Source: a virus
IMG/VR virus record: IMGVR_UViG_3300034101_006340
Coordinates: 96,001-160,000 of that record
Direction: 5' to 3' (one strand)
DNA: 64,000 nt
Below the pieces are notes generated by a model, which was given only the letters and a program-made list of their open reading frames with translations, ran no database searches and was not told the origin of the DNA. Positions 2,777 to 23,674 of this stretch are shown one piece after another. The position numbers were made by a program, and so were the translations under genes. Each line of letters opens with the position of its first letter. Within the stretch, counting starts at the first letter, position 1.

Positions 2777-5700
2777 TTATTGTTGGCCTTCTTTAGAATC
2801 TTTATTACTATTCTCCCATTGACGTATCGCATCTTGTACAATATTACCTAGCGGACCTTCTATTAATGCTTTGAGAGCATCAGCACCATTAACATTAATA
2901 TCCCAAGGCTTATTTTGTACCAAATTAACATTAACTTCCGGAGGAATATTTAACTGTTGTAGTTGTTGAACAAATGTATCAAATTTTTGAGCAAATGTCG
3001 CCAAACCGGCCAAACCACCCTGAGCACCTCCTGCGCCCTGAGCAGCTTCACCATTACCATTTACACCGCCACCGCCTCCTCCTGCTAATGCTTGATTTAG
3101 CTGTGTGATTGTTGCTCCATATTGTACTAAAACTTGATTAACACCAGTTAATAACGTTCCAAATATAACCATTTGTTTATTAACATCACCATAAGAACTA
3201 GGATCAAAAGCTGCTTGTGACGCTTGGCCAACAGCTTGTTGTACTTGTGGAGAAATTGCTGGCGCTCCACCAGGACCGCCGCCTTGAGCCTGCTGCCCCA
3301 TCATGGCTTGTTCACGAGCATTGGGATTAGCTTGTTGTTGTTCAGCATATGCTTGTTGATATGAAACACCTTTGGTTTTGGAGCTTGAATATGCGTCTCT
3401 TCTGCGTTGCATTTCCGCCTCATAAGAGTCTTTTCTTTCTTTCATCTGGTCCTTATAAGATTGTCTTCTGCTAGCCATTTCGTCTTCATATGCCTGCCCC
3501 CCTTTTTTAAGATATACAGTACCACCACCACTATAACTATTACTGTTAATAGATCTTAATAAACCTAGATTTTTTTGCGTAGCTTTACGATTAACAACAA
3601 ATTCACCGGGAGTCAACATAGCTGGAACAGTATCAGTACCTCGTGGTTGATAGTTAACCAATGTTCCAGTACTAGCATAAATTAATCCGCCAAAAGCTTT
3701 ATTCTGTGCTCGTGCGGCTCTGTCTGCTATTCTTCTCTCAGCGCCTTTCTGAAAAGCCGCTGCTTGTTTGTTTGCTAAGTCTTTTAGAACAGGATCATCA
3801 CCAGCACACTCGGCCCTAATTTGTGCATCTAATTCTCTCTCTTTGGTTTTTTTATCTTCAAATCTTGCAATTTGTTCTTCTTGATCCAGTTTAACAAATT
3901 TAGTTGATCTTTTCTCACGATCCAAATATGTCTGACTAACACCAGCATTGCGATAAAATATATCCATACCGGGGACAGTTACCGCATACATATTCGGTAG
4001 ATTATTTTGTGCGTCTGCACCGCCATTAGTAGCATTTAAAAGAGTTGTAACAGCATTCTTAAAAGCATCAATTAATGGACTATCTGCTTGTATAGTATTT
4101 ATATCTCCTTTTTCTCTACGAAATTCATTTTCTATTTTAAATCTTGGAGATGCTTCTAAAAGCTCTTTACGACCCAAACCGGAAGACTGCATAGCTTCGT
4201 CTTCTCTTGCTAAGGATGTTTTTCTAAAACCGTCCATTATTTCTCGTAATCTACTAGAATAATCCATTCTAATTTGACGAGCATTTTTTGCTCTATCTTC
4301 ATCGTCTGGATTCATCTTAGCTTCTTCTTCTGCTCTAACAGCTGCTCTCTCGCTTTGTGCATCTCTTTCCAGACGAGATTTTTTCTCTGCAACACATTGA
4401 TAAAATCCTTGTCTATTCGATTCTGCATCTGCTCTGGCTCTTGCTGCTCTGTCTCCTTGTTCTTTTAGTTTAGCCAAATCTTCTCCTTGAACAGCTCCTA
4501 TGGCATCAAAAGCCGAAGCCACAGAATCAAGATTTGGAATACCTCCATCTTGCAAATAAACCACTCCGCCTTTACTCATTGCTCTTTGTCCACTATTGAT
4601 AGCTTTGAGCAACGGCAAATGTTTTTGTGTAGCGGCACGATTGACCACAAATTCCCCAGGAGTTAACATCGCTGGTACGGTGTCCGTGCCTCTTGGTTGA
4701 TATGGGATCAACATACCAGTATTTGCATATACAACTCCGCCACTACTAAGCTGTTCGGGATCTACTTGTAATTGACTGGTATTACCTCTACTACTGGTTT
4801 TTATATTATATCCTTGTCTCCATCTGTCTCTAATTTTATCGTTTTTAGTACTATAATATGTAAATTCTCCTAAGCGATTTCTCCACCAACCATAAGAACT
4901 TTTATATTGACTTTGAGGAGACTTACCTCCTGTAATTTTTCTACCACCTCTTTCCGCTTGTGCTCTTATCGCCCAGTTACGATCTCTCATATCTTCTTCT
5001 TTGCCAGATGGTTGTCCGAATTTAGCTACAGGAGTAAAACCCTCTGCTTCTGGTGCTGCTTCTCCGCGCCTTCTGGCTTTTCCAGCTTCTTGTGCAAATC
5101 CTACTGCTTCTTGATCTTCTACATCTCTCATATCCATTGGCGCTCCGCCAGGAGCAAATGCTGCTGTTCTGGTATGCACCTGAGATGCTGCTGTTCGTGT
5201 AGCAGCTTCTCCTTTTGCTTGTCCAAGAGCATTTCCTCTAACTGATTGATCAACCATAGTGCTTCTTTGATCATATGCGGTTGTACGATATGATCCTTGT
5301 TTATCTTTAGAATAAAATGCTGTTGTGGTAAATAAATTTTTATCAGGCGCTGGTGGCATATTACCAGCGACAATCTGCTGACTAGCAAATTCTTTATAGG
5401 TTAATTCATCATAATAGTTTGGTCTTTCTATTGCTTTTTTAGCCTCGGCTTGCACCTTGGCTTCTTCTTTGAAGTCTTCCGGGCGTGGTGCTTCTTGTTC
5501 TGGTTGACCAATATCGGGCCCGCCAGGGGGGACTTTACCTTCTTCCGGGGGTGGTATTGGTTCTCTGGTCATGGGCCTATCCCGCCCAGCATCTTGAATT
5601 TCTTGAGCCTGTTTCATTAACTGCCATACGGCTAATATTCCAGCAAGTATAGTTAATCCCGTACTAAGTCTCGATTTCTTATTTGATCGAAATGCAATAG

Positions 5701-8700
5701 CATTATCTTTAACAAATTGTGGCCAAGATCTTGGCTTAAAGCCAGGAAAATCGGAATCATCAAAACCCTTAACTAAATTATCATAGTCTGCTGATGGTTT
5801 TTTAGCTCCTGCTTTATTAGCCATATCATCCAAAACTCGTTGTCTCATAGCTGCTACTTTGGTATCGTAAAGCTGTTTACCTAAAGAGTCATCCATCATT
5901 ATTTTGGTGGCTTGATCATTAAGCACAAGATTACCACTGCTATCAATATCAAAACCATTATTTTTAATCTTGGTTAATGTGTCCTGAATTGTTGTGTCTG
6001 GAACTTCGCCTAAAGCTTTTTGTATGGCGCTTGTTTCATTAGCACCTTTTCCTATGGCATCTTTAAAAGCTTGGTCAAAAACAGTATTATTCTTTAGATC
6101 TGCTAAGTTTTTAGTAGCGGCATCTTTTAGAGCAGAACCCGATCCGCTCTGGTAAAATAAATCAACCACTTCGTTACCAATCTTTTTTGTAGACGCTTCA
6201 TAAATCTCTCTAGCATTTTTAACTGCTTCAGTAAATTTTTGAGCTCTCCTACCAGCAAACATTCCTTTAGTATAATATGTTTCTGGACCTTTTACTGTTG
6301 TAGCAGTATCGTCTAATGGTTTCACGCCAGCATCGTCTGCGGCTTTAGCAGTAGCATCATCTGCGGTTTTAGCAGCAGCTCGTTCCGCTTTGATTTTATC
6401 AAGCGTATCTTGGGAATTACGTCTTAGTCTATCAGCTGCTTTTTTAGCTTGTGCCGCATCTCCTCTACGAACAAGCTGTTCATCGAGTTCTATTAATCGT
6501 GCTTTAGCTTCTTGTGTATAAGACCCACCACCACCTTTGCCCCCAGACTTTCTTCCTGCAATAATCTCATCAGCCTGGCCTTGTATTCTTTCTATAGAAA
6601 GCCTATTGGGTGGTACACTATTCCATCCTCCACGAGAGATAAAATCTGCTTCAGCGGCAGTTTTTATATCAACATCAGAGATTGTATCTAAAGACCCATC
6701 TTTAATTCTTTGATTCAAAGCTTTTAGTCTTGCGTTCGCATAATCGATAGGAGCAAAATTATTTCCGTTTCCATCGACAGGATAAGTAAAGTCTGGATCG
6801 CTTTCTCTGCGAATAATACTTTCTGATAATGTTTTTCTTTCATCTACAAATGCTTTAATTTTATCGGCAGCCATTTTAGACTGTTGTTGCATAGGGTCCA
6901 CAACCTGTGTTTTGGCCGGAGTGCCTACTTCATCTGCTGCTTTTGCTGTTTGTTCTACTGTCTCTGTAGCACCTTTTCTAGTTAATATTTTGGCCCGACC
7001 ATCTTTTAATAGTTTACCAATTTTGGTTTTACTAATAAGTCTGCCCGCTGGGCCTGCTGCTAATGCTCCTCCTCCGAGCGCAACATCCGCAATATCAAAT
7101 AACATTTCTGCGGTTCCTGCCGAAGACTTATAACCAGCTTGTTTCTCTAATAGTTTTTCTTTTTCTGTTTTAATTAATTCATCAGCAGCAGAAGCAGCCA
7201 TAATTCCACCAACGCTACCAGCAATAGTAATACCAGCAGTTCCTAGAGCAGCAGCAGTCGCTCCAACAGCAGCGGCTGGTAAAGCTATTGGGGCTGCGGC
7301 AGCTACAGCAGCAGTTAATAAAAGATTTCTTAATCCTATTTGCGATCCTTTTCTAAGGCCTTCATCTCTAATATCTTCTGGTAACATACCTAATTGAGAT
7401 AATTCAGATAATTCTTTTGCCGAGGTGGACTGTACGCCAAGATTCATATCTATTAATCCCTCTAAAGCAGCAGTACTTCCACTACCAGCTATATTTCTTA
7501 GAGAGATAAGATCTTCTAACAAAGATTTTCTTTGTTGGTATTCTGGTTGTTTGGCTTTCCATTTCGGTTTGTTATTTATTAGATACGCTATTTCGTCGGT
7601 GATGGGCTTGGTAGTTTTTGCTGGTGTCCAACGAGGAAGGTTTTCATGTTCTTGACGCAAATCTTTTATTCTTTGATCTATGCCTTTTAGATCAGTTCTT
7701 TTAGACAAAATATCGTGCCATATATCCAATTTTGGTCCCAAAGAACGTACTTGATCTGATGCATCGGTTTGAAATTCTTTTCTATCATTTGTGGTACCAG
7801 CCCAACTAAATAATTCTTTAATATTTTCTCCTATCCACCACGAATCATCCAGATAGGGATTGATGATAGATAAGGTTTGCAGGTCTTTAGACAGAATATT
7901 TGTAAGGTCTATAGAATCTATAGGGCTGTCGGCCCCGCCAGCAACATTGAGACCAGCAAGCATAGCATCGGCTCTACCAAACTGTTTTTTTAGGCCGATT
8001 AATGTTTGAATATCTGTAGAAAATTGTTGCACCCTAGGAATTTTATTACTAGACAGCTTACCTCCCGGTAAAAGATCTTTCTGGATTCTTATCCCCTCTT
8101 GAGTCTCCACCTGTGCCATTGACGAAGACCCTGCTTCAGATAAATCCTTCAAAATATCATTAATTAAAGCCTGTTTCAAATTATCTGGTTGCACACCTTC
8201 TGGTTGCGGAGATTCCATAGTAACTTCTATAGCCTTATTGATACTATTTTTTAGGCTGTCTGATGCTGCAACGGGTTGTTTGGAACCCTCTGCAAGATAA
8301 ACAACTCCTCCTTGACTATATTGATTGGGAGTTGATCCGCTATTAATAGATTGTAATAAGGGTAAATGTTTTTGTGTGGCGGATCTATTTACTACAAACT
8401 CTCCCGGAGTTAACATGGCAGGAACAGTATCTGTTCCACGAGGCTGAAAATTAATCAGTTTACCAGTACTAGCATAGACTACTCCACCCGTAGCTAAAGG
8501 TTGTGGTTTTTCCAAACCCATAGCGGCAGCACGAGAAGTAAACCAATTCAAACTTGGTAATGGGCCGAGATTATTAGCTAAACCAAATAATACCTGTGCT
8601 TCTTGGGCTTTTTGATATATATCTTGACCAGCTTTATTATAGCTGTCTATAAATTCTGCCATTCTAGCAGCATTGTCCGGCTGTGCTTTAGTATCAAAGA

Positions 8701-11700
8701 AATAGTCTTGGCCAACCCAATCACCAATTCCACCATACCAATTCATCAATCTTGTTAATCCATCTCCTATCCAACTAAGAGTCATAGGATCAAAATATGG
8801 CATAGTACTATTTTCTGCCCTTAAATTAAACAAGTCATTTCCAAATTTTTGTATTAAATCTTTTCTGGTACTAGTTTGTGGAAATTCATTATACGGGTTA
8901 AAAATCAGTTTAACAAGATCATTAACATTGGCATTTTCTGGTAATGCAACAGATAAGTCACTAGCTGCTAGTTTGCCGTCTCGTCCAACGGTCTGGATCT
9001 TAGTTCCTTGAAGTTGTGTACTTATTAGGTTTTGCCAATCTCCGCTAAGAGCCATCGATCCAACCTTGCCGAATCTAGCTGAAGTACCATAGCTTCTGAA
9101 TACATCAGCTATATTTGCTTTCTGATCATAAAATTGTTTTAATAAAGACGTATTGCCTTGAGCTATATCAGCAAAAGCACCAGCTGCTCCACCTATCATT
9201 AGGTATGCATTATTTAACATATTAGCAGCTTGTGGACTATTAGCTTTTGGCATTAGTGCTTGGCTAATATAGCCACCAGCTTGATTAAATAATCCGCTCA
9301 TATAAGATGATGCATCTTTATAATTTCCAAGAGCAGCTACTCTCATGGCTTGAGTACCACCGTAATTAGCAACCCATCCTGTTGGCAACCCGCCTAAATT
9401 ATTAAATAACTGCATTGCTCCACGAATCATAAGTAAAGTTGCTTGTGTATTTTCTTTATCAGAAAAAACCTTGCCTTTAGTTATTGCGGAATTGTCTACT
9501 TTGGCTGCGGCCCCTGCCATCATAGTTTGTAGGCTCTGTAGTTTATCTACAAAAAAGTCCCCTATGGGAACACTGATAGCATTATCACTAAAACCAGCAA
9601 AAATATCTCTGCCTGCTGTACCAGCCCCACCCGGCACATCTAGGGCTTTTAACAAACCTACTGGACCACCTTTAAAACTTAATCTAACTAAATCCTTTAC
9701 CGCTTGTTGTTTAGCGGCATAATCTGGATCTTTATTTAGTTGCGCTTTTAATAAATCTGCAATTGCAGTACCCACATTTGGATCAGCTAAATTAGAATTA
9801 GCTAAAATATCTGCTCCTGTATATTTTTTATTTGTAAATAATCTAGATCTCTCTGTATCCAGTTGTTGGAACAGTGTTTTATCAATCTTATCAGGTAATA
9901 AATATGTAAAGGGTGCTCCAACAAATTCTTTTTTGGCACCATCAAATAATTTACCAGTATACTGAGTATATTGTACGGGTATGTCGATTCCTTGACCCAT
10001 ACCTACAGGTAAAACATCTCGAATATTGGCAGGTAAATCTAATTTAATTGGATCTGTTATAGTACTAGTTTTTATTCCGCTCTTATTTATAAGATCATCT
10101 AATGTTTGTTTAGAAGCCCTTTCTGCAAATCCTTTGCCTAAATATGTATCTATGGCGCCATTTACCATAAAAGGTAGTTCCGTTTCTCCTCCGTTAATAG
10201 TATCTGTAATCTTAAAACCTTCAGCTAATGTAAACTCATCCAATGGTCCTGCTAAACCAGGAATACCGAATTTAACTTTCTCCTTTGAAGCTTTAGCCTT
10301 ATTACTTCTTGCTAATTCAAGTCCTTTAATAAAGTCTGCTTCCATGCTTTTTTGTGCAACAGTAATAGCGCTGACATTTTGTAGTCCGTCGAATATAGAT
10401 AAATTTGTACCAATACTATCATTTGTAAGAGTTGCGCTTGGAATTGTATTACTAAATAATCCAAATAATATCTCTTGTAGTTTACTGCCCTCTTCTGTAT
10501 AATTAAGATTTCCTTTTAAGAATTCTCTAGTATTAATTAGTAATTCATTAAGCTTTGCATTTTCCACATTAGTTTCTGCTATTTTATCAGCTAAAATTAA
10601 ATCTAAACCTTGTCCTGTTGCTAATTCTGGATATTTAAGAACATTTGTTCCCACAATATTCCAGTCTCCAGAATAGTCTTTACCAAAATATGGACTTTCA
10701 GGTAAAAATTGAAGATTAGTTTTTGCTTTTGTGGCCGATGCCACAGCATGTGGTTTACCAGCACCCAGATACATGGCATATGTATCCTGTGTATAAACCC
10801 CAAGAGCGGGTCTACCAGAAAGCTCTTGACTATCAATAGGTACTTCTCCGGCCATAACTGGAGAACGACCTGTTTTATAGAATACTCCAGCAGATTTACC
10901 TTGTTTACTTGTTGTAATTTTATTAGTTGTTTGACTAAAAACATCTCCTTCTTTCAAAGGATCTCCAAAATTAGATGCATCTATCGTAGCAATAGGTAGA
11001 GTAACTGTTTCGATTCCAGCAAATTTTGTTTTGATACTTTCGGCTTTTTTTTCTGCGTCGTTTTTAGAAAGCTTATCAATTGTTTCTAAAGCAGGATCTT
11101 GGAAATATAACCTGTCGTCTGGTTTTGCTGGGCTCAGAGCACTAGCTCTATTCATTAAAGCATTATTGTGTTTGTAACTATATTCATAATCATTTCTTAC
11201 AATATCTGGAGTATATCCTGGAACTGGTGGACCAGGAATAATATTTGGAGAATCTAACCCATACCCCTCTTTTCCAGGAATTGCTGAGGCCATCATTTTA
11301 TAGGTAGATGTATAAACATCGGGCAGTGCAAATAATGGAGATGTGGCAATATCCCATGCTATTTTATTAGAATCTACGTCTTTAAGAATTGGTTTTTCTA
11401 AAGTCTGACCGGCTCCTAGTGTTTTATCACGATCTCCATAATTTGTAATGAAGCCTCCGGCAGCATAATAAGAGACTTTGCCTCCGTTGGCATAACCATT
11501 ATTAATGGATTGTAGTAATGGTAAATTAGCTTGGGTAGCTTTGCGATTAACAACAAATTCTCCAGGCGTCAGCATTGCTGGTACAGTATCCGTACCTCTT
11601 GGCTGGAAATTAACCATTTGTCCAGCAGATGCATATATCAATCCGCCTGTAGCAATTCCGGGTGCTGCTGGAGCTGCGCCGGGTGCTGGGGGCGGAGCTT

Positions 11701-14700
11701 TCATTATTGATACAATACTATTGACATTAGTAGCAATATCTCTAAGTTCTGCATTTTGAAAAGTTAAAACTGCTTGTTGTAATCCTTCAACTATAAGCTT
11801 GGCATTACTTTGAGCAATTCTATCTGCTAGCGTAGCATCAAGTTGTCCTAACAATCTAGTAGCTTGAGATTGTTCCACAATGGCCTGATTATAGTATTGA
11901 ATTGCTGCTGCTGTTGCTGGATCTTGTTCTGGATTACGTAGACTATTGAGCACTTGTTGCATTAGTGGGGATACTCCCATCCCAGCTTCTTGAAGCATCG
12001 TTTCTAAAACATTGGCTCTGACTTGATTACCTTGTTGGCTGTCTCCTAAAAATGGTAAAATATCCTGTAGTGCTCCGAGGGTTTCTTTTCTTTCATTGGC
12101 GAAAGCTGCTTGAGCTTCTCTCATAGCTTCTGTAGCGCTTGCTCCACTTTCCAATGCTTGTATATAAGCTCTTTGTGCTCCAATACTATTTTGTATAGTA
12201 TTTTGTTGTCCATTTATATTTCGCTGTAGTCTGATTAAGGCGTTGTTTGTTGATTCTAATTCATCTGGTGTAGCAGTAACTATTTTCTCTAAAAAGCTAA
12301 CTCTTCCAGCGGCTTTTTGTTGGGCTTGTTGAATAGCGTCCAAAGCAGCACTGGCTTTTTCAGTGTTATTGGCCATATCTTCTAGCGCGGCTCTGTTTTC
12401 TCTGAGTGCTATATTAGTATTTTTTAGTTCATTATTGAACTTAACAAAATCGGCTGCGCCAGCTAGCCCTTGCTCGGCACTCTGTCGTACACTAGATTGT
12501 TGCATTTGTCTAGTGGTATCCAAAGCCAAAAATTGATTAAAAATATCTGTTGGATCTGTTAATCCACCGGTCTGTCCAGCAACCTCCGCATCTCGTTTGG
12601 CAAAAGCGTCCGCAACCTTTATAGTTTTACCAAGAGCTTTAGCTAAATTTAAACTAGCGTCTGTAACAAGTTGTATAGATTTTCTAGACCGGTCTCTGGC
12701 GCTGACTTCTAGTTCTATAATACGATTAAGATTATTAGTATATTGATTTAAAACACTTTGATAATGTTCTAATGCTTTTATAACGCTTTGTTGTGCATTT
12801 TTGGCTACTTCTGTGACGCTTCCTAGTCCAGCAATTTTTTCAGATAGTTTTGCATAATCAACACTATCTTCGCCTTCCTTGCGTATATCAGTAATACTAT
12901 CTCCAACTTCTTTGGCTAGTTTATCAGCTAATTCTGGTGGCAAACCTAGATCTTTTAATGTTGTTTTTAAGTTTCTGTCAATAATTCTAGTTAATGCTTC
13001 ATTAGTAACATTTCCTCCTTGATCTCTAAGAGTATTATTTATAGTAGACATTACCGATGAAGTAATAGTCTCACCAAAAGTTGCTAACTGCGTCATCTCC
13101 GCTGATCTATTACCATATAAAGCTCCTCCAACAGAAGCAGCTCTTTGTACTTCGGGAGCGCTGTATGCTGTAGGATTTTGAATAATATTTTTTGCACCTA
13201 AATTAATATCCCCGGCCTGTGCTTGACCTTGAAATGCGGAAGTTGATAATTCAACGCTATTTTTCATCTTTTCTAAAGAAAATACCGTTGCATTAATGGC
13301 TTGATCCATATTATTGAACATACGTTGTAATGAACGAGTGTAAACACCAACAAGATTTCCAAAATTTTTCTGCGTTTTTTCTCTTAAGGCGGTTTCACTT
13401 CGTTCTCTTAACATAGCTGTTCCGGTTATAGAAATAAGATCCTTAATTCGAGCTTGTCTAGCTTCTTCCGTTAAAGATGTATCTAGTTCAATAGATCTTA
13501 TATGAGTAGCTAGTGAAGCATCTGCCATAACTAAACTTCTCTTAAAATCTTCTGCTTCTGGTCCACCTAAAATATCTTCTACAGATTCTCCTGCTTTGAT
13601 TCTAGAAACAATAACTTGATTAATATTTTCAGCAACAGGCTTAAAGATTGCTGCTGATTCACGACCACTGACTGCTGATGTTCTACCACGAATATTTTCT
13701 AGACCTTGTTGTCCAGCAAATAAGGTTTTCAAATATGGAATAATACCTTCTGTTTCTAAAATTTGTCCTCGTGCTGATGCTTGTCTAGAAGCAGTAATAT
13801 CACCAGAAAAGAAACTTTGTAGATTGGCTGATAGAACATCCAGGCCATTCACCAAACCAGCGGAAGCACTGTCTTGACTCATTTGCCGTTGTCTTTCAGC
13901 TGCTTGAGCTGCTGTAATAACTTTGCTCTGAAGTTCATTTCTTAAATCTATTTGATTAACATCTTTGTTAAGTTTTTCAAATCCTTCAGCCAATCCTTCT
14001 ATTGCTGTTTCGACTCTTTTTTTCTCTAATTCTATTGCAAAATTACGTACAGCATTGTATGCTTGTCGTGCTGCTTCCGCAACCACGGCCAATACTTGTA
14101 ATCTACCAGCTACTCTCCCTATAGTCCCTGCAAAGTTAGCCATCCTAGGATTAGTTGCACGAAGACTATCTGCCATATTAGTAGCTTCTTGTATCAATTG
14201 TTGGGTTGCTCCATAAGTTTGAGAAGCACCAGCTATTGCTCCACCAACACCCGCTTCTGTTGCGCTAGATTTTGTATTTAAAACATCTGCAACTAGAGTT
14301 CCAACGGTCATAATAGCCATATTACGCATTGTTCTGGCTTGATATTCTGCTCCTTGTACTGCTCCTGGAGAAGTCGCCCCTTCTGCTGCGGCAGTACCTT
14401 CTACCGCTCGTCTTCTAGCACTAATTTCTTCGTCTAATGCCGCTCGTCTTGCTCTTGCAGTATCCTCATCAATAGCACCAGAGGCCAAATCAGCTTCTAT
14501 TCGTTGTCTAGTGGTTTGAGTTAATCTTTGGTTCATTTGATCCAAAGTTCTGCTATCTCTAGCCAAGATCTGAAATACTCTAGCTAAATCATCTCCATCC
14601 GCTCCTAAAGCATCTAAGTCTATTGATGTTCCAGTAACACCGCCACCGAATGCTACAGTTTCATATGCTTGTCTTCTTCTATCGTTTTCTCCTGCTCTAA

Positions 14701-17700
14701 GTTCAGCTTGAACTTCTTCTTCGGTTCTAGCAACTCCGGTTGTTGCCGATGGGGTGGTTCTAAGAGTAGCTTCAGCAGCCGCTCTTGCTCTATCAACCTG
14801 CTGTTGTACAAGACCCAGAGCATCTTGTATAGCGGCGCCTGAAATATCTCCTAATTGTTGTCTTATAGCAATTTCATTTTGCGTTGCTGTTGTTGCTTGT
14901 TGCACAGCTGTTTCTAAATCGAATATAACATCCGCAGCAGCACCAGCTGCTCTTGCAGCGGCTAAATCTGCCTGAGCCGCTCTTTCTGCTTCTGCCGCCG
15001 TGGCTTGATAGCTCCTATTCAATAAAGCAGCAGATCTTGATCCATTAACTCCTAATGCTTGTAATGTTTCTGCTAATTGCGTTAATGCTGTGGTAGCTTG
15101 TGTACTAGCACCTATAGTTTCAGCGGAAACTGTGTCTGGTCGTGCGGCCGGGGCTCGTCGGCCTCGTCCTCCAAAAAAGAATTTCTGGATTCGTCCACCG
15201 TTATTAAATCCTAATGCTTCGGTAGCTTTCTTGCGAATAACAAAACTACCAACCTCAAGAGGTACTGGACCAAATGTGTCAGTATTACCAGAGCCAGGAA
15301 CGATACCAACTCCTCCACCACTAGCATATCTATCAGCATAATTCATTTTATTAAGTTTAGCATATCCTATGCTTTTAGCTAGTTTCGGCCCTATTACAGC
15401 TTCGCCGGGTGTTAATAATGCTGGAACATAACCCCCGTCTGCAAATCTGCTTAATGGTCCACCAATATTTTTCTTACTTAATTTCATTCCCATAGAACGA
15501 ATAATATTATCTACTTCCGCATCAGATACTTCGCTACCATAGCTATCTAATAAAGCATATAGAGTTTCTGATAATCCTGTTATACGTCCTTGATTTGGAA
15601 CAGCAGCTCCTTTTAATAATGCCTGATAGTCTGGCAAGGCTTTTTGTGCTTTAGATAATTTGCGTTGTATCGAAGCTTTTTCATCGGGATCAGTTTCTGA
15701 TGCCAGATCGTTTTGCAATTGGGATATGTATCCTGGGAAAGATTTTTGAATATGACTATCTATAGCTTGATCAAAAGATAATTGACCCGTCTTTTTAAAT
15801 GATCCTATGGCTTCTTCTGCTTGAGTATAAACTAAATTGCCTGCTTCGGCAGCGAGTGCGGCATTAGCCCGTGCTTCCCTAGCACTAGCCGCAGGTGTTT
15901 TAGTTGCTGTTGCTCGACCAAACGGCAGAATTTCTTCTATCTCAGAATACCATCCATCATATTGTTTTATTAAATCTGGTTTCAGTGCTTCAAAAGCATC
16001 TGGTTCAATATTATCAGGTATTTTTACTAATTTTTTACCCAAAGACATTCCTGCTCCACCAGATTCAAACACCCATTGCTGAATTTTTTGTGCATACTCT
16101 GCTAATGGTTTTGGTAATGGTACACCAAGATGATTTCCCCATCCAGGACCACCATATTCTCCGGCTTGGGCATATGCTTGCTCTGCAAATAATTCGTATT
16201 GTTTTGGTTCAAGAGGCACAAAACCTTTTGGTCCACGAGATCCTCGTCTAATATTTTTGGTAGATCTATCTTTAACACCTCCGGGAGAACCGTCTTCAAA
16301 GCCCTGTACTAATCCACCCAAATTAAATCTATCAGGATTTTCTGTAAAATATCTTTCAAACTCGCTTCTTGCTTTATCAAAAGCGCTGCCGTTTAATGTT
16401 CTCTTAACTTCTGTTTCTATATTAGATGGTAAATTAAATAAAGAGGCCGCATTACCAAGACCAGCGGGAAAATCTATGGCCCTAGTAGCTTCTAGAGCAT
16501 CTACGTTGATTTGATAGCCTAATTTTTGAGCTAACGCCTGTTCTAATAACGATCCCTCGATATTACCTTCACCAGTTTTGGTATACATTTTTTGATCATC
16601 AAAAGATTCTGGTTCTTGGTATCGATATGACTGAACTCCTTTTTTCTCTGCTGCTTTAATATTTTCTTCATTATCATCAATAAATTTTTCAATAGCTGCT
16701 AAATTAGCAGCTTTTCCTGCGGCAATATTTGTTCCAAGCCCTTTGCTTACGCCGGTAATATCGGTAGCTTGATATGGCAACCCGAATCTATTTAATGTGG
16801 CGGCAACTAAATCGGCTGTGGTTTGTGGTCTTGCTGTTAAAACCCTAGTAAGTCTTCTAACTATGCCTGGATTTTTTTGTTCAACCTCGGACAATCTTTG
16901 TGCAAGTCTTGAGGGCCTAGCTTTTGCTAAACTTGCTTCTACTTTATCTCTTAAAGAATAACTAGCAATATCTTCTTTACCGCTCTCATCGACCATTTTT
17001 GTTCCAAAAGCTAATGTTTCATCAAAATCTATAGCTAGTGGTCTAATTGGTCCAACAATTGGTGCTTCTGTTTGACTTAATGGTCCTAGTGCTTCTGTTG
17101 CTGTTGTATCTTTAGCAAAATCTAGACTGGCTTGTCTTTGTCTTTCTCTTAATTTTTTAACATCTCCTAGATACTGTTTACTAAATCCTCTAATCATTGC
17201 AGTATATTTTTGACCGTTCAATGGATTGTCTGGACCAAGATCTAGCGTCCATTCTTTATCACTGCTATAATCTATTGGTTGCAACCCTGCTATGGCTACT
17301 TTTCTTAATCCTCTTTTACGAGTTTTTTCGTCTGTATCAACTTGTTTAGCTTTATTCAAAATACCAGCGACAACCAAAGGATCAAGTCTGCCGGTAAGAA
17401 TACCGTCTTTTCTAAGTTTTCTTTGTAAATTAGAGGGAATAGCAACTCCACGATCCCGTATTCCTGCTTCATTACCAAGATCTGCTAATGTTTTTACTAA
17501 AGTGTCTGTTATAGCCTGTTGAATAGACTGATCTTGTTTTTTATTTTTGATAGCAATCTGACCAATTTCACCATATTGTTCTACTATTACAGGGTCTATC
17601 TCTTCTGTTTCTCCGCCAACAGCAAATTTTTGAATTAGTCCACCAAAAAATTTTTTCTTTTTGCCAGAATTCGCCTTGAACGATCCTCCTGCGCCTGTGA

Positions 17701-20002
17701 TTTTAGTAGCATCAGTAAATAGTCTCACGTTCCCTAATGGTATTGTGTTTATATTACTGTCTAATTGTGTATTTGCTAATTGTGATGCTAGTGGAGCTGC
17801 CGCCGGAGAATCTTGACTTCCTAATATAGATGATGCTATAATTTTTTTTCCTATTTCTTTTTCGGAAACTGATTCTTTATAGCTTTTAATTTCAACTGGT
17901 GCCCCAGATGTATCGATTCCGTCTAGTCTAGCATACCGATTAGATGATAAAGCAACCCCTTCAACATCTCTTACAACATTTTGAAAAGCGTCCCCTCTTT
18001 TTGTAGGGGAGCGGGTTTGCATATATGTTGTTATCGAAGGAAGTTCTTTGTATCTTTGATCATTCTGAAGCTCAGACACATCGATACTTTGTGGAACAAT
18101 ATTAAAATTAAACTTATCTTTTGGATTAAATCTATTGGGCTTAGATCCTCCAGCATTAAATGGTTTACCTGATTCTTTGTCTAATTGTGATCTATCTAAT
18201 TGCACTTGATTTAATAGTTGGCTATTGCCCGCATATTTTTGAATAGGCCCCCCATAAGCATATCTACGACTTCTAGACGAGTATAATTTACCGCCAGAAT
18301 TGAAGCCCTCAAGATTTTTTCTTCCTGCTCTAGCTACCCCTGCTTTACTCATCACAAATTCACCAGGAGTCAACATTGCCGGAACACTATCTCTATTTCC
18401 AACTCCAGGAACACTACCGCCCTTGGCAAACCCAATAATTCCACCCATATTTGCTCGTCGCCCACCAGTTCCCCTAAAACCTCCGCCAAAACCTCCGGCA
18501 AATTGAGTAATAGCGCTTACGCCTCTAAATGCTGCCATCACACCTATAAGTGGTAATAATCCTTTAGTGGCATCTGCGACTTTGATCAATGCACTAGCTA
18601 AATTTAATCCTATCTTTACCAAAGCTTGAAAAGATTGGCTCTCTCCAAAGGATCTCATTAAGGCAGAAAATTCTTCTCGTACTTTTTGGAATTGTACAGC
18701 AAGTGCTAGTTGTCCTTTTGCTGCTTCTGCCGCCAATGACCCCTGACCAGCTTGTGCAATTTTTAATGCTTCTTGCGCCGTTGCAAATTGTTGAATAAGT
18801 GGAAGCACTTTACCGATTTGTCGGAAACCACCAAGTTCTTCTACAATTTCACTAAATTTTAAGTCTCGTGGATCTAACCTTCCTAATCCATCTGCTAATC
18901 TTCTAACCGCTTCGTATGGACCAACGAATTTGCCTTCTAGATCTGTTAATGTGACTCCATATTCTTTAAGAGCTTCAATAGTGTCTGCTCTTTGAATACG
19001 AGTAAAAATAGTTCTTAAACCAGTAGCGATAGTTTCTGCGCTTTCACGAGTTGTGGCACGAACACTTGTGAAAACAGCAATAAATTCATTTAATGCATCT
19101 GTGCCTTGACTAACGCCATTACTAGCAGCAGCAAACACACCACCAGTACGCTGAATAGCGGTAATAAGATCACTAGCTTCAACAGCAAACGCAGCAGCAA
19201 CAGCATTGATAGATCCTAATGCTCCTTCTAATTGACCGGCGCTAATTCCGAACTGTCTCATTAAAGCAATACTACCTTCAACAGTTTCATTTAAACTATC
19301 AAACGATGGAGCTAATGCGCTTTTTGCTAAGGCTTCTAATGCTTTTCTGGTATCATTAGCGTTTAAACCAGCTTGAGCTAGTGTAACAGCAACATTTGCA
19401 ATATCTGATGATGCAACACCGAACCCTGTGGATAATCTTGTTATTTCACCAACTAGAGAGCCTAATCCTGCTTTGGTTTCATTGGTAACTTGTGTTAATC
19501 TTACTATTTGCCTATCAAATTCAATATATTGTTTAATGCCAGCAGACAAAGCATTGGTAAAACCATATATAACTGATGTAACGCTACTAAAAGCAGCAAA
19601 ACGTCTAACTGCTAATCCAGCTTGTCTACCGAAATCTTCAAATTCAGTACGGGTTTGTGCGACAGCTCTTGCAGCATTTGTTGCTGCGTTTGCTGTAACA
19701 TTAATTTGAGCTGGTATATTATTAGGCAATCTAATATTGCCAACGCTAGCCATTGCAGCCGCTAGATTATTGAATGCTGTTGTAGCATTAGTAGCGGATG
19801 CTGCCGTTTGGTTAAGAGTAGCACTTAATGCATTAAGTCTTGTGTTTAAATTACCAACATTTCTACTTACTCTTGGATCTATATTAACATTAACATTAGC
19901 ATTAATAGTACCTAGTTGTCTGCGAATATTAGAAACTACTTGTCTAATATTAGCTGGACCCCTAAGATTAATTTCAGCAGTAAGATTAAATCCTCTAGCC
20001 AT
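2777..20002 (-). CDS. Giant tape measure protein (5741 aa) with TP901-type core and multiple cargo modules
   Basis: N-terminal TMP core (EFDRQIVRLTQVT...VAVTLAQAG...INAVAAAFAVEASDLITAIQRTGG...ESAETIATGLRTIFTRI); Ala/Gln-rich helical stretches; TMP-typical GTDTVPAMLTPGEFVV motifs; located downstream of the tube and chaperone genes. Confidence 0.93.
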   Translation of the reverse strand: MARGFNLTAEINLRGPANIRQVVSNIRRQLGTINANVNVNIDPRVSRNVGNLNTRLNALSATLNQTAASATNATTAFNNLAAAMASVGNIRLPNNIPAQINVTANAATNAARAVAQTRTEFEDFGRQAGLAVRRFAAFSSVTSVIYGFTNALSAGIKQYIEFDRQIVRLTQVTNETKAGLGSLVGEITRLSTGFGVASSDIANVAVTLAQAGLNANDTRKALEALAKSALAPSFDSLNETVEGSIALMRQFGISAGQLEGALGSINAVAAAFAVEASDLITAIQRTGGVFAAASNGVSQGTDALNEFIAVFTSVRATTRESAETIATGLRTIFTRIQRADTIEALKEYGVTLTDLEGKFVGPYEAVRRLADGLGRLDPRDLKFSEIVEELGGFRQIGKVLPLIQQFATAQEALKIAQAGQGSLAAEAAKGQLALAVQFQKVREEFSALMRSFGESQSFQALVKIGLNLASALIKVADATKGLLPLIGVMAAFRGVSAITQFAGGFGGGFRGTGGRRANMGGIIGFAKGGSVPGVGNRDSVPAMLTPGEFVMSKAGVARAGRKNLEGFNSGGKLYSSRSRRYAYGGPIQKYAGNSQLLNQVQLDRSQLDKESGKPFNAGGSKPNRFNPKDKFNFNIVPQSIDVSELQNDQRYKELPSITTYMQTRSPTKRGDAFQNVVRDVEGVALSSNRYARLDGIDTSGAPVEIKSYKESVSEKEIGKKIIASSILGSQDSPAAAPLASQLANTQLDSNINTIPLGNVRLFTDATKITGAGGSFKANSGKKKKFFGGLIQKFAVGGETEEIDPVIVEQYGEIGQIAIKNKKQDQSIQQAITDTLVKTLADLGNEAGIRDRGVAIPSNLQRKLRKDGILTGRLDPLVVAGILNKAKQVDTDEKTRKRGLRKVAIAGLQPIDYSSDKEWTLDLGPDNPLNGQKYTAMIRGFSKQYLGDVKKLRERQRQASLDFAKDTTATEALGPLSQTEAPIVGPIRPLAIDFDETLAFGTKMVDESGKEDIASYSLRDKVEASLAKARPSRLAQRLSEVEQKNPGIVRRLTRVLTARPQTTADLVAATLNRFGLPYQATDITGVSKGLGTNIAAGKAANLAAIEKFIDDNEENIKAAEKKGVQSYRYQEPESFDDQKMYTKTGEGNIEGSLLEQALAQKLGYQINVDALEATRAIDFPAGLGNAASLFNLPSNIETEVKRTLNGSAFDKARSEFERYFTENPDRFNLGGLVQGFEDGSPGGVKDRSTKNIRRGSRGPKGFVPLEPKQYELFAEQAYAQAGEYGGPGWGNHLGVPLPKPLAEYAQKIQQWVFESGGAGMSLGKKLVKIPDNIEPDAFEALKPDLIKQYDGWYSEIEEILPFGRATATKTPAASAREARANAALAAEAGNLVYTQAEEAIGSFKKTGQLSFDQAIDSHIQKSFPGYISQLQNDLASETDPDEKASIQRKLSKAQKALPDYQALLKGAAVPNQGRITGLSETLYALLDSYGSEVSDAEVDNIIRSMGMKLSKKNIGGPLSRFADGGYVPALLTPGEAVIGPKLAKSIGYAKLNKMNYADRYASGGGVGIVPGSGNTDTFGPVPLEVGSFVIRKKATEALGFNNGGRIQKFFFGGRGRRAPAARPDTVSAETIGASTQATTALTQLAETLQALGVNGSRSAALLNRSYQATAAEAERAAQADLAAARAAGAAADVIFDLETAVQQATTATQNEIAIRQQLGDISGAAIQDALGLVQQQVDRARAAAEATLRTTPSATTGVARTEEEVQAELRAGENDRRRQAYETVAFGGGVTGTSIDLDALGADGDDLARVFQILARDSRTLDQMNQRLTQTTRQRIEADLASGAIDEDTARARRAALDEEISARRRAVEGTAAAEGATSPGAVQGAEYQARTMRNMAIMTVGTLVADVLNTKSSATEAGVGGAIAGASQTYGATQQLIQEATNMADSLRATNPRMANFAGTIGRVAGRLQVLAVVAEAARQAYNAVRNFAIELEKKRVETAIEGLAEGFEKLNKDVNQIDLRNELQSKVITAAQAAERQRQMSQDSASAGLVNGLDVLSANLQSFFSGDITASRQASARGQILETEGIIPYLKTLFAGQQGLENIRGRTSAVSGRESAAIFKPVAENINQVIVSRIKAGESVEDILGGPEAEDFKRSLVMADASLATHIRSIELDTSLTEEARQARIKDLISITGTAMLRERSETALREKTQKNFGNLVGVYTRSLQRMFNNMDQAINATVFSLEKMKNSVELSTSAFQGQAQAGDINLGAKNIIQNPTAYSAPEVQRAASVGGALYGNRSAEMTQLATFGETITSSVMSTINNTLRDQGGNVTNEALTRIIDRNLKTTLKDLGLPPELADKLAKEVGDSITDIRKEGEDSVDYAKLSEKIAGLGSVTEVAKNAQQSVIKALEHYQSVLNQYTNNLNRIIELEVSARDRSRKSIQLVTDASLNLAKALGKTIKVADAFAKRDAEVAGQTGGLTDPTDIFNQFLALDTTRQMQQSSVRQSAEQGLAGAADFVKFNNELKNTNIALRENRAALEDMANNTEKASAALDAIQQAQQKAAGRVSFLEKIVTATPDELESTNNALIRLQRNINGQQNTIQNSIGAQRAYIQALESGASATEAMREAQAAFANERKETLGALQDILPFLGDSQQGNQVRANVLETMLQEAGMGVSPLMQQVLNSLRNPEQDPATAAAIQYYNQAIVEQSQATRLLGQLDATLADRIAQSNAKLIVEGLQQAVLTFQNAELRDIATNVNSIVSIMKAPPPAPGAAPAAPGIATGGLIYASAGQMVNFQPRGTDTVPAMLTPGEFVVNRKATQANLPLLQSINNGYANGGKVSYYAAGGFITNYGDRDKTLGAGQTLEKPILKDVDSNKIAWDIATSPLFALPDVYTSTYKMMASAIPGKEGYGLDSPNIIPGPPVPGYTPDIVRNDYEYSYKHNNALMNRASALSPAKPDDRLYFQDPALETIDKLSKNDAEKKAESIKTKFAGIETVTLPIATIDASNFGDPLKEGDVFSQTTNKITTSKQGKSAGVFYKTGRSPVMAGEVPIDSQELSGRPALGVYTQDTYAMYLGAGKPHAVASATKAKTNLQFLPESPYFGKDYSGDWNIVGTNVLKYPELATGQGLDLILADKIAETNVENAKLNELLINTREFLKGNLNYTEEGSKLQEILFGLFSNTIPSATLTNDSIGTNLSIFDGLQNVSAITVAQKSMEADFIKGLELARSNKAKASKEKVKFGIPGLAGPLDEFTLAEGFKITDTINGGETELPFMVNGAIDTYLGKGFAERASKQTLDDLINKSGIKTSTITDPIKLDLPANIRDVLPVGMGQGIDIPVQYTQYTGKLFDGAKKEFVGAPFTYLLPDKIDKTLFQQLDTERSRLFTNKKYTGADILANSNLADPNVGTAIADLLKAQLNKDPDYAAKQQAVKDLVRLSFKGGPVGLLKALDVPGGAGTAGRDIFAGFSDNAISVPIGDFFVDKLQSLQTMMAGAAAKVDNSAITKGKVFSDKENTQATLLMIRGAMQLFNNLGGLPTGWVANYGGTQAMRVAALGNYKDASSYMSGLFNQAGGYISQALMPKANSPQAANMLNNAYLMIGGAAGAFADIAQGNTSLLKQFYDQKANIADVFRSYGTSARFGKVGSMALSGDWQNLISTQLQGTKIQTVGRDGKLAASDLSVALPENANVNDLVKLIFNPYNEFPQTSTRKDLIQKFGNDLFNLRAENSTMPYFDPMTLSWIGDGLTRLMNWYGGIGDWVGQDYFFDTKAQPDNAARMAEFIDSYNKAGQDIYQKAQEAQVLFGLANNLGPLPSLNWFTSRAAAMGLEKPQPLATGGVVYASTGKLINFQPRGTDTVPAMLTPGEFVVNRSATQKHLPLLQSINSGSTPNQYSQGGVVYLAEGSKQPVAASDSLKNSINKAIEVTMESPQPEGVQPDNLKQALINDILKDLSEAGSSSMAQVETQEGIRIQKDLLPGGKLSSNKIPRVQQFSTDIQTLIGLKKQFGRADAMLAGLNVAGGADSPIDSIDLTNILSKDLQTLSIINPYLDDSWWIGENIKELFSWAGTTNDRKEFQTDASDQVRSLGPKLDIWHDILSKRTDLKGIDQRIKDLRQEHENLPRWTPAKTTKPITDEIAYLINNKPKWKAKQPEYQQRKSLLEDLISLRNIAGSGSTAALEGLIDMNLGVQSTSAKELSELSQLGMLPEDIRDEGLRKGSQIGLRNLLLTAAVAAAAPIALPAAAVGATAAALGTAGITIAGSVGGIMAASAADELIKTEKEKLLEKQAGYKSSAGTAEMLFDIADVALGGGALAAGPAGRLISKTKIGKLLKDGRAKILTRKGATETVEQTAKAADEVGTPAKTQVVDPMQQQSKMAADKIKAFVDERKTLSESIIRRESDPDFTYPVDGNGNNFAPIDYANARLKALNQRIKDGSLDTISDVDIKTAAEADFISRGGWNSVPPNRLSIERIQGQADEIIAGRKSGGKGGGGSYTQEAKARLIELDEQLVRRGDAAQAKKAADRLRRNSQDTLDKIKAERAAAKTADDATAKAADDAGVKPLDDTATTVKGPETYYTKGMFAGRRAQKFTEAVKNAREIYEASTKKIGNEVVDLFYQSGSGSALKDAATKNLADLKNNTVFDQAFKDAIGKGANETSAIQKALGEVPDTTIQDTLTKIKNNGFDIDSSGNLVLNDQATKIMMDDSLGKQLYDTKVAAMRQRVLDDMANKAGAKKPSADYDNLVKGFDDSDFPGFKPRSWPQFVKDNAIAFRSNKKSRLSTGLTILAGILAVWQLMKQAQEIQDAGRDRPMTREPIPPPEEGKVPPGGPDIGQPEQEAPRPEDFKEEAKVQAEAKKAIERPNYYDELTYKEFASQQIVAGNMPPAPDKNLFTTTAFYSKDKQGSYRTTAYDQRSTMVDQSVRGNALGQAKGEAATRTAASQVHTRTAAFAPGGAPMDMRDVEDQEAVGFAQEAGKARRRGEAAPEAEGFTPVAKFGQPSGKEEDMRDRNWAIRAQAERGGRKITGGKSPQSQYKSSYGWWRNRLGEFTYYSTKNDKIRDRWRQGYNIKTSSRGNTSQLQVDPEQLSSGGVVYANTGMLIPYQPRGTDTVPAMLTPGEFVVNRAATQKHLPLLKAINSGQRAMSKGGVVYLQDGGIPNLDSVASAFDAIGAVQGEDLAKLKEQGDRAARARADAESNRQGFYQCVAEKKSRLERDAQSERAAVRAEEEAKMNPDDEDRAKNARQIRMDYSSRLREIMDGFRKTSLAREDEAMQSSGLGRKELLEASPRFKIENEFRREKGDINTIQADSPLIDAFKNAVTTLLNATNGGADAQNNLPNMYAVTVPGMDIFYRNAGVSQTYLDREKRSTKFVKLDQEEQIARFEDKKTKERELDAQIRAECAGDDPVLKDLANKQAAAFQKGAERRIADRAARAQNKAFGGLIYASTGTLVNYQPRGTDTVPAMLTPGEFVVNRKATQKNLGLLRSINSNSYSGGGTVYLKKGGQAYEDEMASRRQSYKDQMKERKDSYEAEMQRRRDAYSSSKTKGVSYQQAYAEQQQANPNAREQAMMGQQAQGGGPGGAPAISPQVQQAVGQASQAAFDPSSYGDVNKQMVIFGTLLTGVNQVLVQYGATITQLNQALAGGGGGGVNGNGEAAQGAGGAQGGLAGLATFAQKFDTFVQQLQQLNIPPEVNVNLVQNKPWDINVNGADALKALIEGPLGNIVQDAIRQWENSNKDSKEGQQ
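3587..3649 (-). repeat. TMP motif QPRGTDTVPAMLTPGEFVVNR, copy 4 (aa ~5452)
   Basis: Translated directly; 21 aa identical to the copies at 4637, 8384 and 11543. Confidence 0.95.
4637..4699 (-). repeat. TMP motif QPRGTDTVPAMLTPGEFVVNR, copy 3 (aa ~5102)
   Basis: Translated directly; identical peptide, different synonymous codons. Confidence 0.95.
8384..8446 (-). repeat. TMP motif QPRGTDTVPAMLTPGEFVVNR, copy 2 (aa ~3853)
   Basis: Translated directly; identical peptide, different synonymous codons. Confidence 0.95.
11543..11605 (-). repeat. TMP motif QPRGTDTVPAMLTPGEFVVNR, copy 1 (aa ~2800)
   Basis: Translated directly. Degenerate copies also occur at ~18350-18395 (DSVPAMLTPGEFVM) and ~15395-15435 (YVPALLTPGEAVI). 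Confidence 0.95.
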
Positions 20003-20092: not shown

Positions 20093-21004
20093 CTACGCAC
20101 TAGTAGCGCTAACCGGCTCGGAAACTGGAGTTGGCTCAGTGCTAGGCGTTTCATTTGTAGCAACTTTTTCTTCCTTATTAGAAATTACAGGTTGTGGGAC
20201 TGTTTCCTCTTCAAAAACAACTGGATTGCCATTATCGTCTAAAAATGGTTGAGCATCAACAACATATTCACCAGCCTCATCAACTTGATTACCGTCTCTA
20301 TCTACAAACTCACCAGCCTCATTAATATATCGACCTTGTTCGTCTATTAGTCTACCTTCGCCGTCAACGGTACGACCCTTTTTATCAATAAATCGTAAAT
20401 CATCATTTACAAACTTGTATTTCTTTAAGAATTTATTTTCTGGTAAATTCTTTTCAAAGTTATTATCTAATCCATAAATCATATTAGCCAATTTTTGAGC
20501 ACCCGAAAGAGCCACAGGATCATCTATGCGACTCATATAGTCTTCAAGGCTTTCAAAATACTTTTTATCACTATCTTTATACACCACACAAGCACTAACT
20601 AAATAATTAAATCTAGCATTATCAGCTTGACCTTCGGCGCTATGGTTGTCTAAACTAGTACGAACGCTAATAAGTTCTCGGATCTTATTTCTTACTTCTC
20701 TCATTCGAATAGCTAGCTTCTTAGCTTCACTAAGTGAAAAACCACCTTTAGCCAGTTTTCGCTCTCCGTCTAATAGTTCTTTCTGAAGACTAGTATATTC
20801 TTGCTGCTTTTCAGTATTCCATAAACCCTGATCTTGCAGTAAGTCGTCCATCTTTGCCCTTACAACGCTTTTGCTCTTAATAGCGTCTGTAAAAGCTTGA
20901 TTATATACTTTTTGTCCTTCTCTTTGATCTACTAATGATGGAGATCTAACTGTGAAAGTCTTTTCTTCACCATTAACTACTACTTTGAAATCCTCGGTCT
21001 TCAT
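20093..21004 (-). CDS. Probable tail assembly chaperone (303 aa)
   Basis: Immediately upstream of the TMP; acidic/helical; AGGAG RBS; C-terminal D-x-x-G repeats and a Pro/Glu/Thr tail. Confidence 0.6.
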   Translation of the reverse strand: MKTEDFKVVVNGEEKTFTVRSPSLVDQREGQKVYNQAFTDAIKSKSVVRAKMDDLLQDQGLWNTEKQQEYTSLQKELLDGERKLAKGGFSLSEAKKLAIRMREVRNKIRELISVRTSLDNHSAEGQADNARFNYLVSACVVYKDSDKKYFESLEDYMSRIDDPVALSGAQKLANMIYGLDNNFEKNLPENKFLKKYKFVNDDLRFIDKKGRTVDGEGRLIDEQGRYINEAGEFVDRDGNQVDEAGEYVVDAQPFLDDNGNPVVFEEETVPQPVISNKEEKVATNETPSTEPTPVSEPVSATSA

Positions 21005-21015
21005 AAAGGTCTCCT

Positions 21016-21366: not shown

Positions 21367-21380
21367 AAAATTTTCCTTCC

Positions 21381-22573: not shown

Positions 22574-22630
22574 AACTATCCTTCCTTTGTGGTCTTAAAA
22601 TTTATCTATTAACTTAATTTATAAGCTAAA

Positions 22631-23647: not shown

Positions 23648-23674
23648 AATTTTTTCTCCGATTTAGCGGTTAAA

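Follow-up and report, generated by a model that had tools for sequence, protein, structure and literature searches.

A giant tape measure protein of an uncultured marine phage with enzyme-like cassettes set between repeated glycine-rich joints

Tape measure proteins (TMPs) occupy the lumen of phage tails, exit first at infection and help to form a channel across the cell envelope (PMC12617516). No phage protein enters the envelope before the TMP, at the very point where defences such as SNIPE act, and gpH of phage lambda approaches ManYZ of the inner membrane so closely that labelling from the cytoplasmic side reaches it (PMC13190303). A C-terminal gpH fragment of ~14 kDa, gpHC, is cut off within a glycine-rich region at a site and by a protease that are unidentified, and, of gpH, residues 818–849 alone have been observed in complex with gpI, the hub protein (PMC12617516). 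The closest tested precedent for the protein described here is gp96 of Thermus phage P23-45 (also of P74-26, G20c and TSP4; Chaban et al. 2024, PMC10770324), a 5,002-aa TMP from a very long-tailed siphophage that contains an N-proximal virion RNA polymerase (aa ~327–1124) which transcribes the pre-early genes (PMC10770324). Here we describe a 5,741-aa TMP encoded in a 64,000-nucleotide window of a single IMG/VR virus record (IMGVR_UViG_3300034101_006340; 128,328 bp, 35.8% G+C, ~91% complete by CheckV) from an uncultured marine phage.

The protein is built as a constant scaffold (a TMP core, a ruler of ~1,170 aa, a hydrophobic stretch and a C-terminal end) that is interrupted by cassettes lying between Gly-rich joints. 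We propose, by analogy with known systems and with a probability of about 0.58, that this ruler protein is a modular carrier that would place enzymes in the host, with its cargo either tethered or freed.

Architecture of the protein and origin of its joints

The tape measure gene (2777..20002) is a single uninterrupted open reading frame (ORF) of 5,741 codons plus a stop, i.e., 17.2 kb of frame without any stop codon; all modules and joints described below lie with it on the minus strand. A sequence-only reading of this DNA had given its finding the span 2777–18460, which falls in the same single ORF and leaves out the N-terminal 514 aa, as the ORF runs to 20002. The TMP core, which that reading had put at aa ~155–450, was recovered as a TP901-type core at aa 145–485 (18548..19570) by TIGR01760 (106.8 bits, cut-off 28.8, E 1e-30) and at aa 187–379 by PF10145 (88.2 bits, cut-off 33.2), and 12 TMP PHROGs matched the 5,741-aa protein. 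The core was 47–79% identical across all relatives, and its closest cultured matches were TMPs of SPbeta-type Bacillus phages, at ~25% identity. Provided that every residue counts at 0.15 nm (rule from PMC1796659), 5,741 aa would correspond to a tail of ~860 nm.

The core sequence of the joints, [VI]PA[ML]LTPGE, occurred six times (aa 540, 1526, 2807, 3860, 5109 and 5459), and a shorter joint of the form GGxhQKF occurred four times (aa 584, 787, 1229 and 1602). The earlier claim that conserved Gly-rich linkers divide the protein was thus borne out, and its list of modules was broadly right. The last four long joints, L3 (aa 2781–2860; 11423..11662), L4 (aa 3831–3910; 8273..8512), L5 (aa 5081–5160; 4523..4762) and L6 (aa 5431–5510; 3473..3712), were near-identical units of ~75 aa with 56–71% protein identity, and the long form reads GGhhYAxxG-x7-PRGTDTVPAMLTPGEFVVNRxATQxxLPLLxxIN-x8-GGxVY. 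Joint L1 (aa 505–592; 18227..18490) was a degenerate long joint followed by GGPIQKY, and L2 (aa 1500–1615; 15158..15505) consisted of two degenerate joint halves and GGRIQKFFFGG. Two short joints stood alone, GGLIQKFAVGG at aa 787–803 (17594..17644) and GGLVQGFEDGSPGG at aa 1229–1244 (16271..16318).

Among the four long joints, identical residues shared a codon at only 34–49% of positions and the longest run of identical bases was 17, which indicates that each copy has been kept by selection on the peptide and not by recent duplication or gene conversion. Intragenic recombination as the source of joint conservation was rejected on account of the same limit of 17 identical consecutive bases.

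A profile of 174 joint copies matched lambda gpH 732–784 (hmmsearch E 9e-7 against this single target; hhalign probability 92%), and by this profile evidence the long joint is homologous to that part of gpH, which lies inside gpHC, 40–90 residues past the Gly-rich region in which gpH is cut. When one joint copy (L3) was used in a tblastn search, 83 cultured-phage records were matched at a single place per record; the annotated features shown under these matches were all TMPs, and some RefSeq copies call the same gene endolysin. In the TMPs of Paracoccus phage R3 and Dinoroseobacter phage R5C, 39–50 residues separate the joint from the C-terminus; in PHROG profiles it likewise falls close to the end, and in the TMP of mycobacteriophage Amelie it is internal. 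No joint was found outside the TMP frame in 68 loci. Judged from these sequence comparisons, the joint is an old TMP element, and its long form has arisen by multiplication of a motif of which ordinary TMPs have a single copy close to their C-terminus. A cultured cyanophage, Nodularia phage vB_NpeS-2AV2 (KU230356.1, 124378-134592; locus L069), encodes a 3,404-aa TMP with 71% identity in the joint core and might serve for experiments on the joint.

Enzyme-like modules and cassette exchange in the N-proximal bay

The region between the first joint and the ruler (aa ~595–1500), here termed the bay, contains modules M1 to M3. Residues 611–1500 were modelled with AlphaFold2 (AF2) from a 50-row alignment of module-sized pieces of relatives, and the model was confident at aa ~800–1230 (predicted local distance difference test score, pLDDT, 75–98) and poor for M1.

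One module is a capless HAD phosphatase domain at aa 982–1135 (16598..17059), in which HAD motifs I–IV (DxDxT, S/T, K and DD) occur in order as D992xD994xT996, T1056-A-R, K1097 and D1109-D1110, with conservation of at least 90% across 108 homologues. The modelled domain has the Rossmann-like HAD core fold. Its meaningful top Foldseek matches were AphA, phosphoserine phosphatase, HisB-N and the HAD-like domain of drimenol synthase (probability 0.8–1.0), with weak scores (E ~1e-3 or worse, target TM-score 0.2–0.46), and its best structural match was the 3'-phosphatase of T4 Pnkp. Curated models such as PF00702 gave no match to the domain in Pfam or NCBIfam (E ≤ 1 / 0.1), so that its assignment to the superfamily is based on fold and motifs; one short homologue matched PF00702 at E 0.08. 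Motifs and fold agree with the HAD phosphatase proposed earlier, and the module is, as modelled, an enzyme with an intact-looking catalytic site. In the HAD classification, capless members fit macromolecular substrates, and the lack of a cap in this domain would suit such a substrate. The partners of Pnkp were also looked for. No Walker A motif was seen by eye in the HAD module, no AAA_33 kinase was present in the genome, and no RNA ligase was found there, with the PF09511 search being uninformative since its control gave no match.

Two further modules carry the catalytic signature E...D...(D/E)xK and are PD-(D/E)xK-like at motif level. In M1 (aa 595–786; 17645..18220) the motif comprises R669-G, Q674, D694 and E704-x-K706; D694, E704 and K706 were kept in 10 of 10 homologues, and position 674, which is Q here, was E in 7 of the 10. 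The pattern RGxxF(E/Q)...D...EhKS is of the Hjc/Mrr type. In Nuc2 (aa 1136–1228; 16319..16597) the corresponding residues are E1154 (conserved in 100/107), D1177 (107/107), E1198 (acidic, E or D, in 107/107) and K1200 (103/107). The two nuclease-like units that had been proposed from the sequence therefore hold as far as their conserved catalytic motifs are concerned and lack confirmation in the fold, as M1 was modelled at pLDDT <50 and Nuc2 shows only two strands of the alpha-beta-beta-beta-alpha-beta core expected of this superfamily. The fold-search lists were filled by the HAD domain, and M1 and Nuc2 matched each other weakly (hhalign E 0.011, probability 4%).

The remaining parts of the bay are M2a (aa 804–981; 17060..17593), a folded alpha/beta unit (pLDDT 75–95) with no assigned function, and M3 (aa 1245–1499; 15506..16270), which is partly helical and to which no identity was assigned. 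Sequence searches of the PDB by phmmer and by profile gave nothing credible, and a match to a sugar-binding protein (E 0.006) was rejected as composition-like, since it ran across the HAD/Nuc2 border. ESM Atlas held no usable match for M1–M2, near-length homologues of aa 600–1520 were not found, and the pair of HAD and Nuc2 had no match in cultured phages.

Relatives were collected by a word-index search (37 giants of 3,228–7,724 aa), by an exhaustive phmmer search with aa 600–1515 against 1.84 billion representatives (70 matches, nearly all giant TMPs) and by scans of IMG/VR. The latter gave 66 further loci with uninterrupted frames of 1,100 to >6,700 aa, most >3,000 aa, and with up to 7 joints each, the weakest and truncated loci having none. 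More than 100 uncultured giant TMPs (3,000–7,700 aa), by sequence comparison, share the scaffold and joints and differ in their cassettes. A matrix of modules showed that core, ruler and joints were common to these relatives and that M1, M2a, M3, M6 and M7 were patchy, with M1 found in few relatives only, and the distance from the first joint to the ruler ranged from 131 to 2,331 aa.

Breakpoints of similarity clustered at the joints. They were taken from BLAST against 140 non-redundant relatives as the places where long segments end, and 57% of 706 such end points fell within 20 residues of a joint, compared to an expected 15.7%; since the relatives share kinship, the end points are non-independent and the nominal p-value carries little meaning. 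The largest peak (85 end points at aa 1200–1250) coincided with the short joint at aa 1229–1244, and another peak at aa 750–800 with the one at aa 787–803. Module gains and losses were then counted on a tree of the TMP core (105 TMPs) and compared to shuffled means. The 10 occurrences of ADP-ribosyltransferase (ADPRT) cassettes required 10 changes (shuffled mean 9.7). M2a, which was scattered over 25 of the 105 relatives, required 17 changes (22.6), and M3, present in 13 of 105, 9 changes (12.3). M5 required a single change (22.7) and M7 occurred in 2 of 105 relatives, with truncated loci possibly adding false absences for such distal modules. These counts indicate that the N-proximal bay turns over freely and that the distal M5 is inherited vertically. 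The prediction of constant linkers with varying cargo was accordingly supported by the module matrix, the breakpoints and the bracketed ADPRT cassettes described below; the proposed swapping of cassettes applies to the N-proximal bay, which exchanges at its joints, and not to M5 (970 aa). On the sequence data, the bay is a hot spot of cassette exchange.

The content of the exchanged cassettes was recognised in a few cases, and relatives have ADPRT or SNase in this same bay. PF03496, an ADP-ribosyltransferase family, scored above its cut-off (28–32 bits vs 23.4) in the TMPs of three loci only (L008, L029 and L060) and had no Pfam match in the TMP of the window itself. In these three TMPs the cassette was bracketed by GGAIQRF...GGAIQKF or GGMVQKF. 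Relatives of the ADPRT cassette stood at ten different positions; one 7,122-aa TMP (P0051) has two ADPRT-like cassettes, at aa 1133–1286 and 3077–3258. Precomputed Pfam annotation of relatives gave SNase (P0027), a thermonuclease name (P0021) and EF-hands, a Pfam scan of 34 bays of relatives named only ADPRT, and most cassettes were Pfam orphans. In one relative (L045, IMGVR_UViG_3300033061_001635; TMP aa 1877–2124) the two domains are in the opposite order to that of the window TMP, with a nuclease-like unit first and the HAD after it. Short proteins with single cassettes were rare: P0098 (152 aa) is Nuc2 followed by a UvrB/UvrC UVR motif, P0099 (162 aa) is the HAD alone and P0102 (220 aa) is M1 alone. 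They may be free-standing cassette sources or gene fragments, and apart from the UVR motif after the free-standing Nuc2, the short phmmer matches yielded no family name.

Ruler body, distal modules and genome setting

The ruler body M4 (aa 1616–2780, ~1,170 aa; 11663..15157) is predicted to be helical from its Ala-rich, aromatic-poor composition and was present in all relatives with 25–77% identity. It is followed by M5 (aa 2861–3830; 8513..11422), a confidently folded alpha/beta multidomain unit of 970 aa (AF2 mean pLDDT 78.5), in agreement with the globular unit of ~980 aa that had been suggested. The M5 fold had no Foldseek match in PDB or BFVD, VIA gave a generic 4-helix bundle only, and ESM Atlas gave no usable match.

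M6 (aa 3911–5080; 4763..8272) is charged and patchily conserved and holds a hydrophobic Ala/Gly-rich stretch of ~50 aa (aa 4221–4273; 7184..7342) with Kyte-Doolittle values of up to 2.0, a candidate membrane-insertion element by its sequence. Most relatives have one such stretch, at a variable position. This ~1170-aa unit had been called toxin-like, a label that we reject for want of any supporting evidence: M6 had no family match in Pfam, PHROGs or NCBIfam and showed only the hydrophobic stretch. M7 (aa 5161–5430; 3713..4522) is coil-like with 36% charged residues. The C-terminal end, M8 (aa 5511–5741; 2780..3472), is Gly/Gln-rich and then enters a conserved terminal block with the consensus ...NIPxxINxxxVNxNGA..., which is common to relatives and, by analogy with the binding of lambda gpH 818–849 to gpI, is likely the end that docks at the tail tip.

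The sheath family PF04984 had no match anywhere in the 128-kb genome. Fibre-like genes lie upstream of the TMP, and its immediate neighbours are without family matches in Pfam or PHROG. The latter include the five ORFs directly upstream (20093-24631, minus strand; 303, 116, 347, 338 and 318 aa), so that neither a major tail protein nor any chaperone was recognised in this phage by sequence. Further upstream on the same strand, a 792-aa protein (25829-28207) combines fn3, an N-terminal domain of the Mtd (major tropism determinant) type and YHYH; it matches fibre and baseplate PHROGs and is a candidate receptor-binding protein. An 857-aa Laminin_G_3 (ConA-like) protein (28204-30777, minus strand) and, directly downstream of the TMP, a beta-roll protein (2-2761, minus strand; LbR_Ice_bind below cut-off; 1,062 aa in the whole genome) are both possible parts of the tail tip. 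A second giant ORF (34658-48817, minus strand; 4,719 aa) with He_PIG Ig (E 3e-12), YadA head repeat and weak cadherin matches is probably a giant fibre or adhesin, and together with the TMP it takes up ~24% of the 128-kb genome.

Proposed enzyme delivery, its alternatives and known systems

In the delivery model, the giant TMP would be stored in the tail lumen and expelled on infection, where its scaffold would help to build the conduit across the envelope. By analogy with P23-45 gp96, the N-proximal enzymes would exit the tail last, directly ahead of the leading DNA end. The phosphatase–nuclease pair of the bay would thereby reach the cytoplasmic face at the entry site and may act there on nucleic-acid ends or on host proteins prior to phage gene expression, as the RNA polymerase fused to P23-45 gp96 does. 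An anti-defence role may be one outcome, and release of the cassettes by cleavage may accompany it.

Several results weigh against this model. Searched in four quarters against Pfam, PHROGs and NCBIfam, the protein gave no named family other than those of the TMP core and the joint, the distal half is without a recognisable enzyme, and a Pfam scan of the distal halves of 20 relatives found EF-hands only. M5, being inherited vertically, may be structural. Within the bay, the fold of M1 was not obtained, and the Nuc2 model, a helix-strand-strand-helix unit bearing the motif residues, leaves the PD-(D/E)xK fold unconfirmed; the kinship behind the breakpoints reduces their weight as well. A Pnkp-style role of the HAD in RNA repair is weakened because the genome is without an RNA ligase or AAA_33 kinase and the pathway is thus incomplete. 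Folded domains would pose a packing problem in a tail lumen of ~4 nm, and the full length of the enzyme motif embedded in the TM4 TMP was reflected in the length of the tail (PMC1796659).

Of the alternatives, the one that survives best is that of a true polyprotein, as the sequence-only reading had proposed. The TMP would then be cleaved at the joints or close to them, either while the tail matures or once the protein has been ejected, and the cassettes would be freed. The same peptide stands at every cassette boundary under strong peptide-level selection on each copy, and the joint is homologous to a part of gpHC 40–90 residues past the gpH cut region; moreover, cut TMPs are known only from lambda and T5, with other phages hardly examined. 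However, the homology to gpH pinpoints no scissile bond. The TMP itself contains no HExxH or HxxEH motif, no protease domain and no match to a peptidase family, and has only 11 His and 2 Cys in its whole length; none of the relatives has its modules as separate ORFs split at the joints, and the P23-45 virion RNA polymerase is proposed to act while still fused. Overall, we consider such cutting possible, if rather unlikely.

A structural explanation, which we judge to be unlikely, holds that the joints are assembly or docking elements (for bundle register, contacts with chaperones or the tube lumen, or hub docking like that of gpHC), that the modules serve mainly tail length and envelope penetration, and that the targets of the enzymes lie in the periplasm or at the phage's own DNA end and not in host defence. 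The position of the single motif of ordinary TMPs close to the C-terminus, i.e., at the tail-tip end (39–50 aa from the end in R3 and R5C), would fit this, as would the fact that gpHC stays bound to the hub, yet five internal joint copies cannot all dock on one hub. Similarly, AphA-type HADs are periplasmic, whereas the capless HAD of the bay is closest to polynucleotide phosphatases and the ADPRT and SNase cassettes of relatives are typical cytoplasm-directed effectors. The vertical inheritance and orphan fold of M5 and the ruler function of the TM4 motif suit structural parts; the bay, by contrast, turns over fast and independently of the tree, as conflict genes typically do and structural parts do not.

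A bolder extension of the delivery model is doubtful: the joint would be a self-contained signal for processing and hand-over, and the TMP family a phage-borne injection system for multiple effectors, in which cargo cut free at the joints disarms defences at the site of injection before the DNA arrives. If true, the effector set threaded through the tail would consist of a phosphatase, nucleases and ADP-ribosyltransferases, and the cleavage of lambda gpH would also be explained. Finally, an artefact (an assembly chimera or read-through of several genes) would suit a metagenome-derived contig whose neighbouring genes are unannotated but is very improbable, given 17.2 kb without a stop, more than 100 independent contigs with uninterrupted giant ORFs of 3,000–7,700 aa and identical scaffold order, and the existence of such TMPs in cultured phages (P23-45 gp96 with 5,002 aa; Nodularia phage 2AV2 with 3,404 aa).

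Among known systems, gp96 of P23-45 resembles the window TMP in having a cytoplasm-acting enzyme in an N-proximal position, at the same relative place as the bay (aa ~595–1500), and membrane segments further along. It differs in that it has one fixed enzyme, without a reported repeated joint or exchange of cassettes, and in its metallopeptidase domain, which is absent from the window TMP. If uncultured marine and freshwater phage families do rack enzymes on the ruler, protein delivery by siphophage tails would be far commoner than the P23-45 case.

Embedded enzymes that are used at entry are also found in the TMPs TM4 gp17 (mt3; PMC1796659), T5 pb2 and SPbeta YomI. Those enzymes attack peptidoglycan, whereas no lysozyme or peptidase was found in the window TMP, the recognisable domains of which are of types that modify nucleic acids or proteins. 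The Sle1-type TMP-related effectors of actinobacterial contractile injection systems (PMC13277306, PMC11126660) likewise use a TMP-derived platform with a functional domain that is exchangeable between species; in contrast to the window TMP, they are cargo of intracellular phage-tail-like particles and not a phage ruler, and their single functional domain is not accompanied by a repeated joint.

Polyvalent proteins (Iyer et al. 2017, PMC5512222) are very large multi-enzyme proteins that are thought to enter with the DNA, and their ADP-ribosyltransferase and nuclease domain types overlap with the cargo of relatives of the window TMP. Their defining combination of unrelated enzymatic domains within a single giant phage protein is found in the window TMP as the HAD and two nuclease-like units. 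However, polyvalent proteins are packaged in the head or delivered by conjugation and are typically processed by a zincin-like metallopeptidase (MPTase), whereas the window TMP is without a peptidase, and the paper that described them never mentions tape measure proteins (PMC5512222). In our literature search, no TMP family was reported to have a multiplied gpHC-type joint together with exchangeable nuclease, phosphatase or ADPRT cassettes. A recent survey of mosaicism among phage proteins could not confirm any genuine recent case in TMPs (PMC10684548), and the giant TMP family would supply one.

Lambda gpH (PMC12617516) shares the homologous joint, with a Gly-rich flank and GG-h-h-Y ends in both proteins; the lambda-type TMP model TIGR01541 did not match the window TMP. 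In gpH the joint occurs once, close to the C-terminus, and enzyme cargo is absent, compared to six copies spread over 5,000 residues in the window TMP. The conserved joint ties the giant TMPs to the unexplained cleavage of gpH, which would make a 50-year-old question testable.

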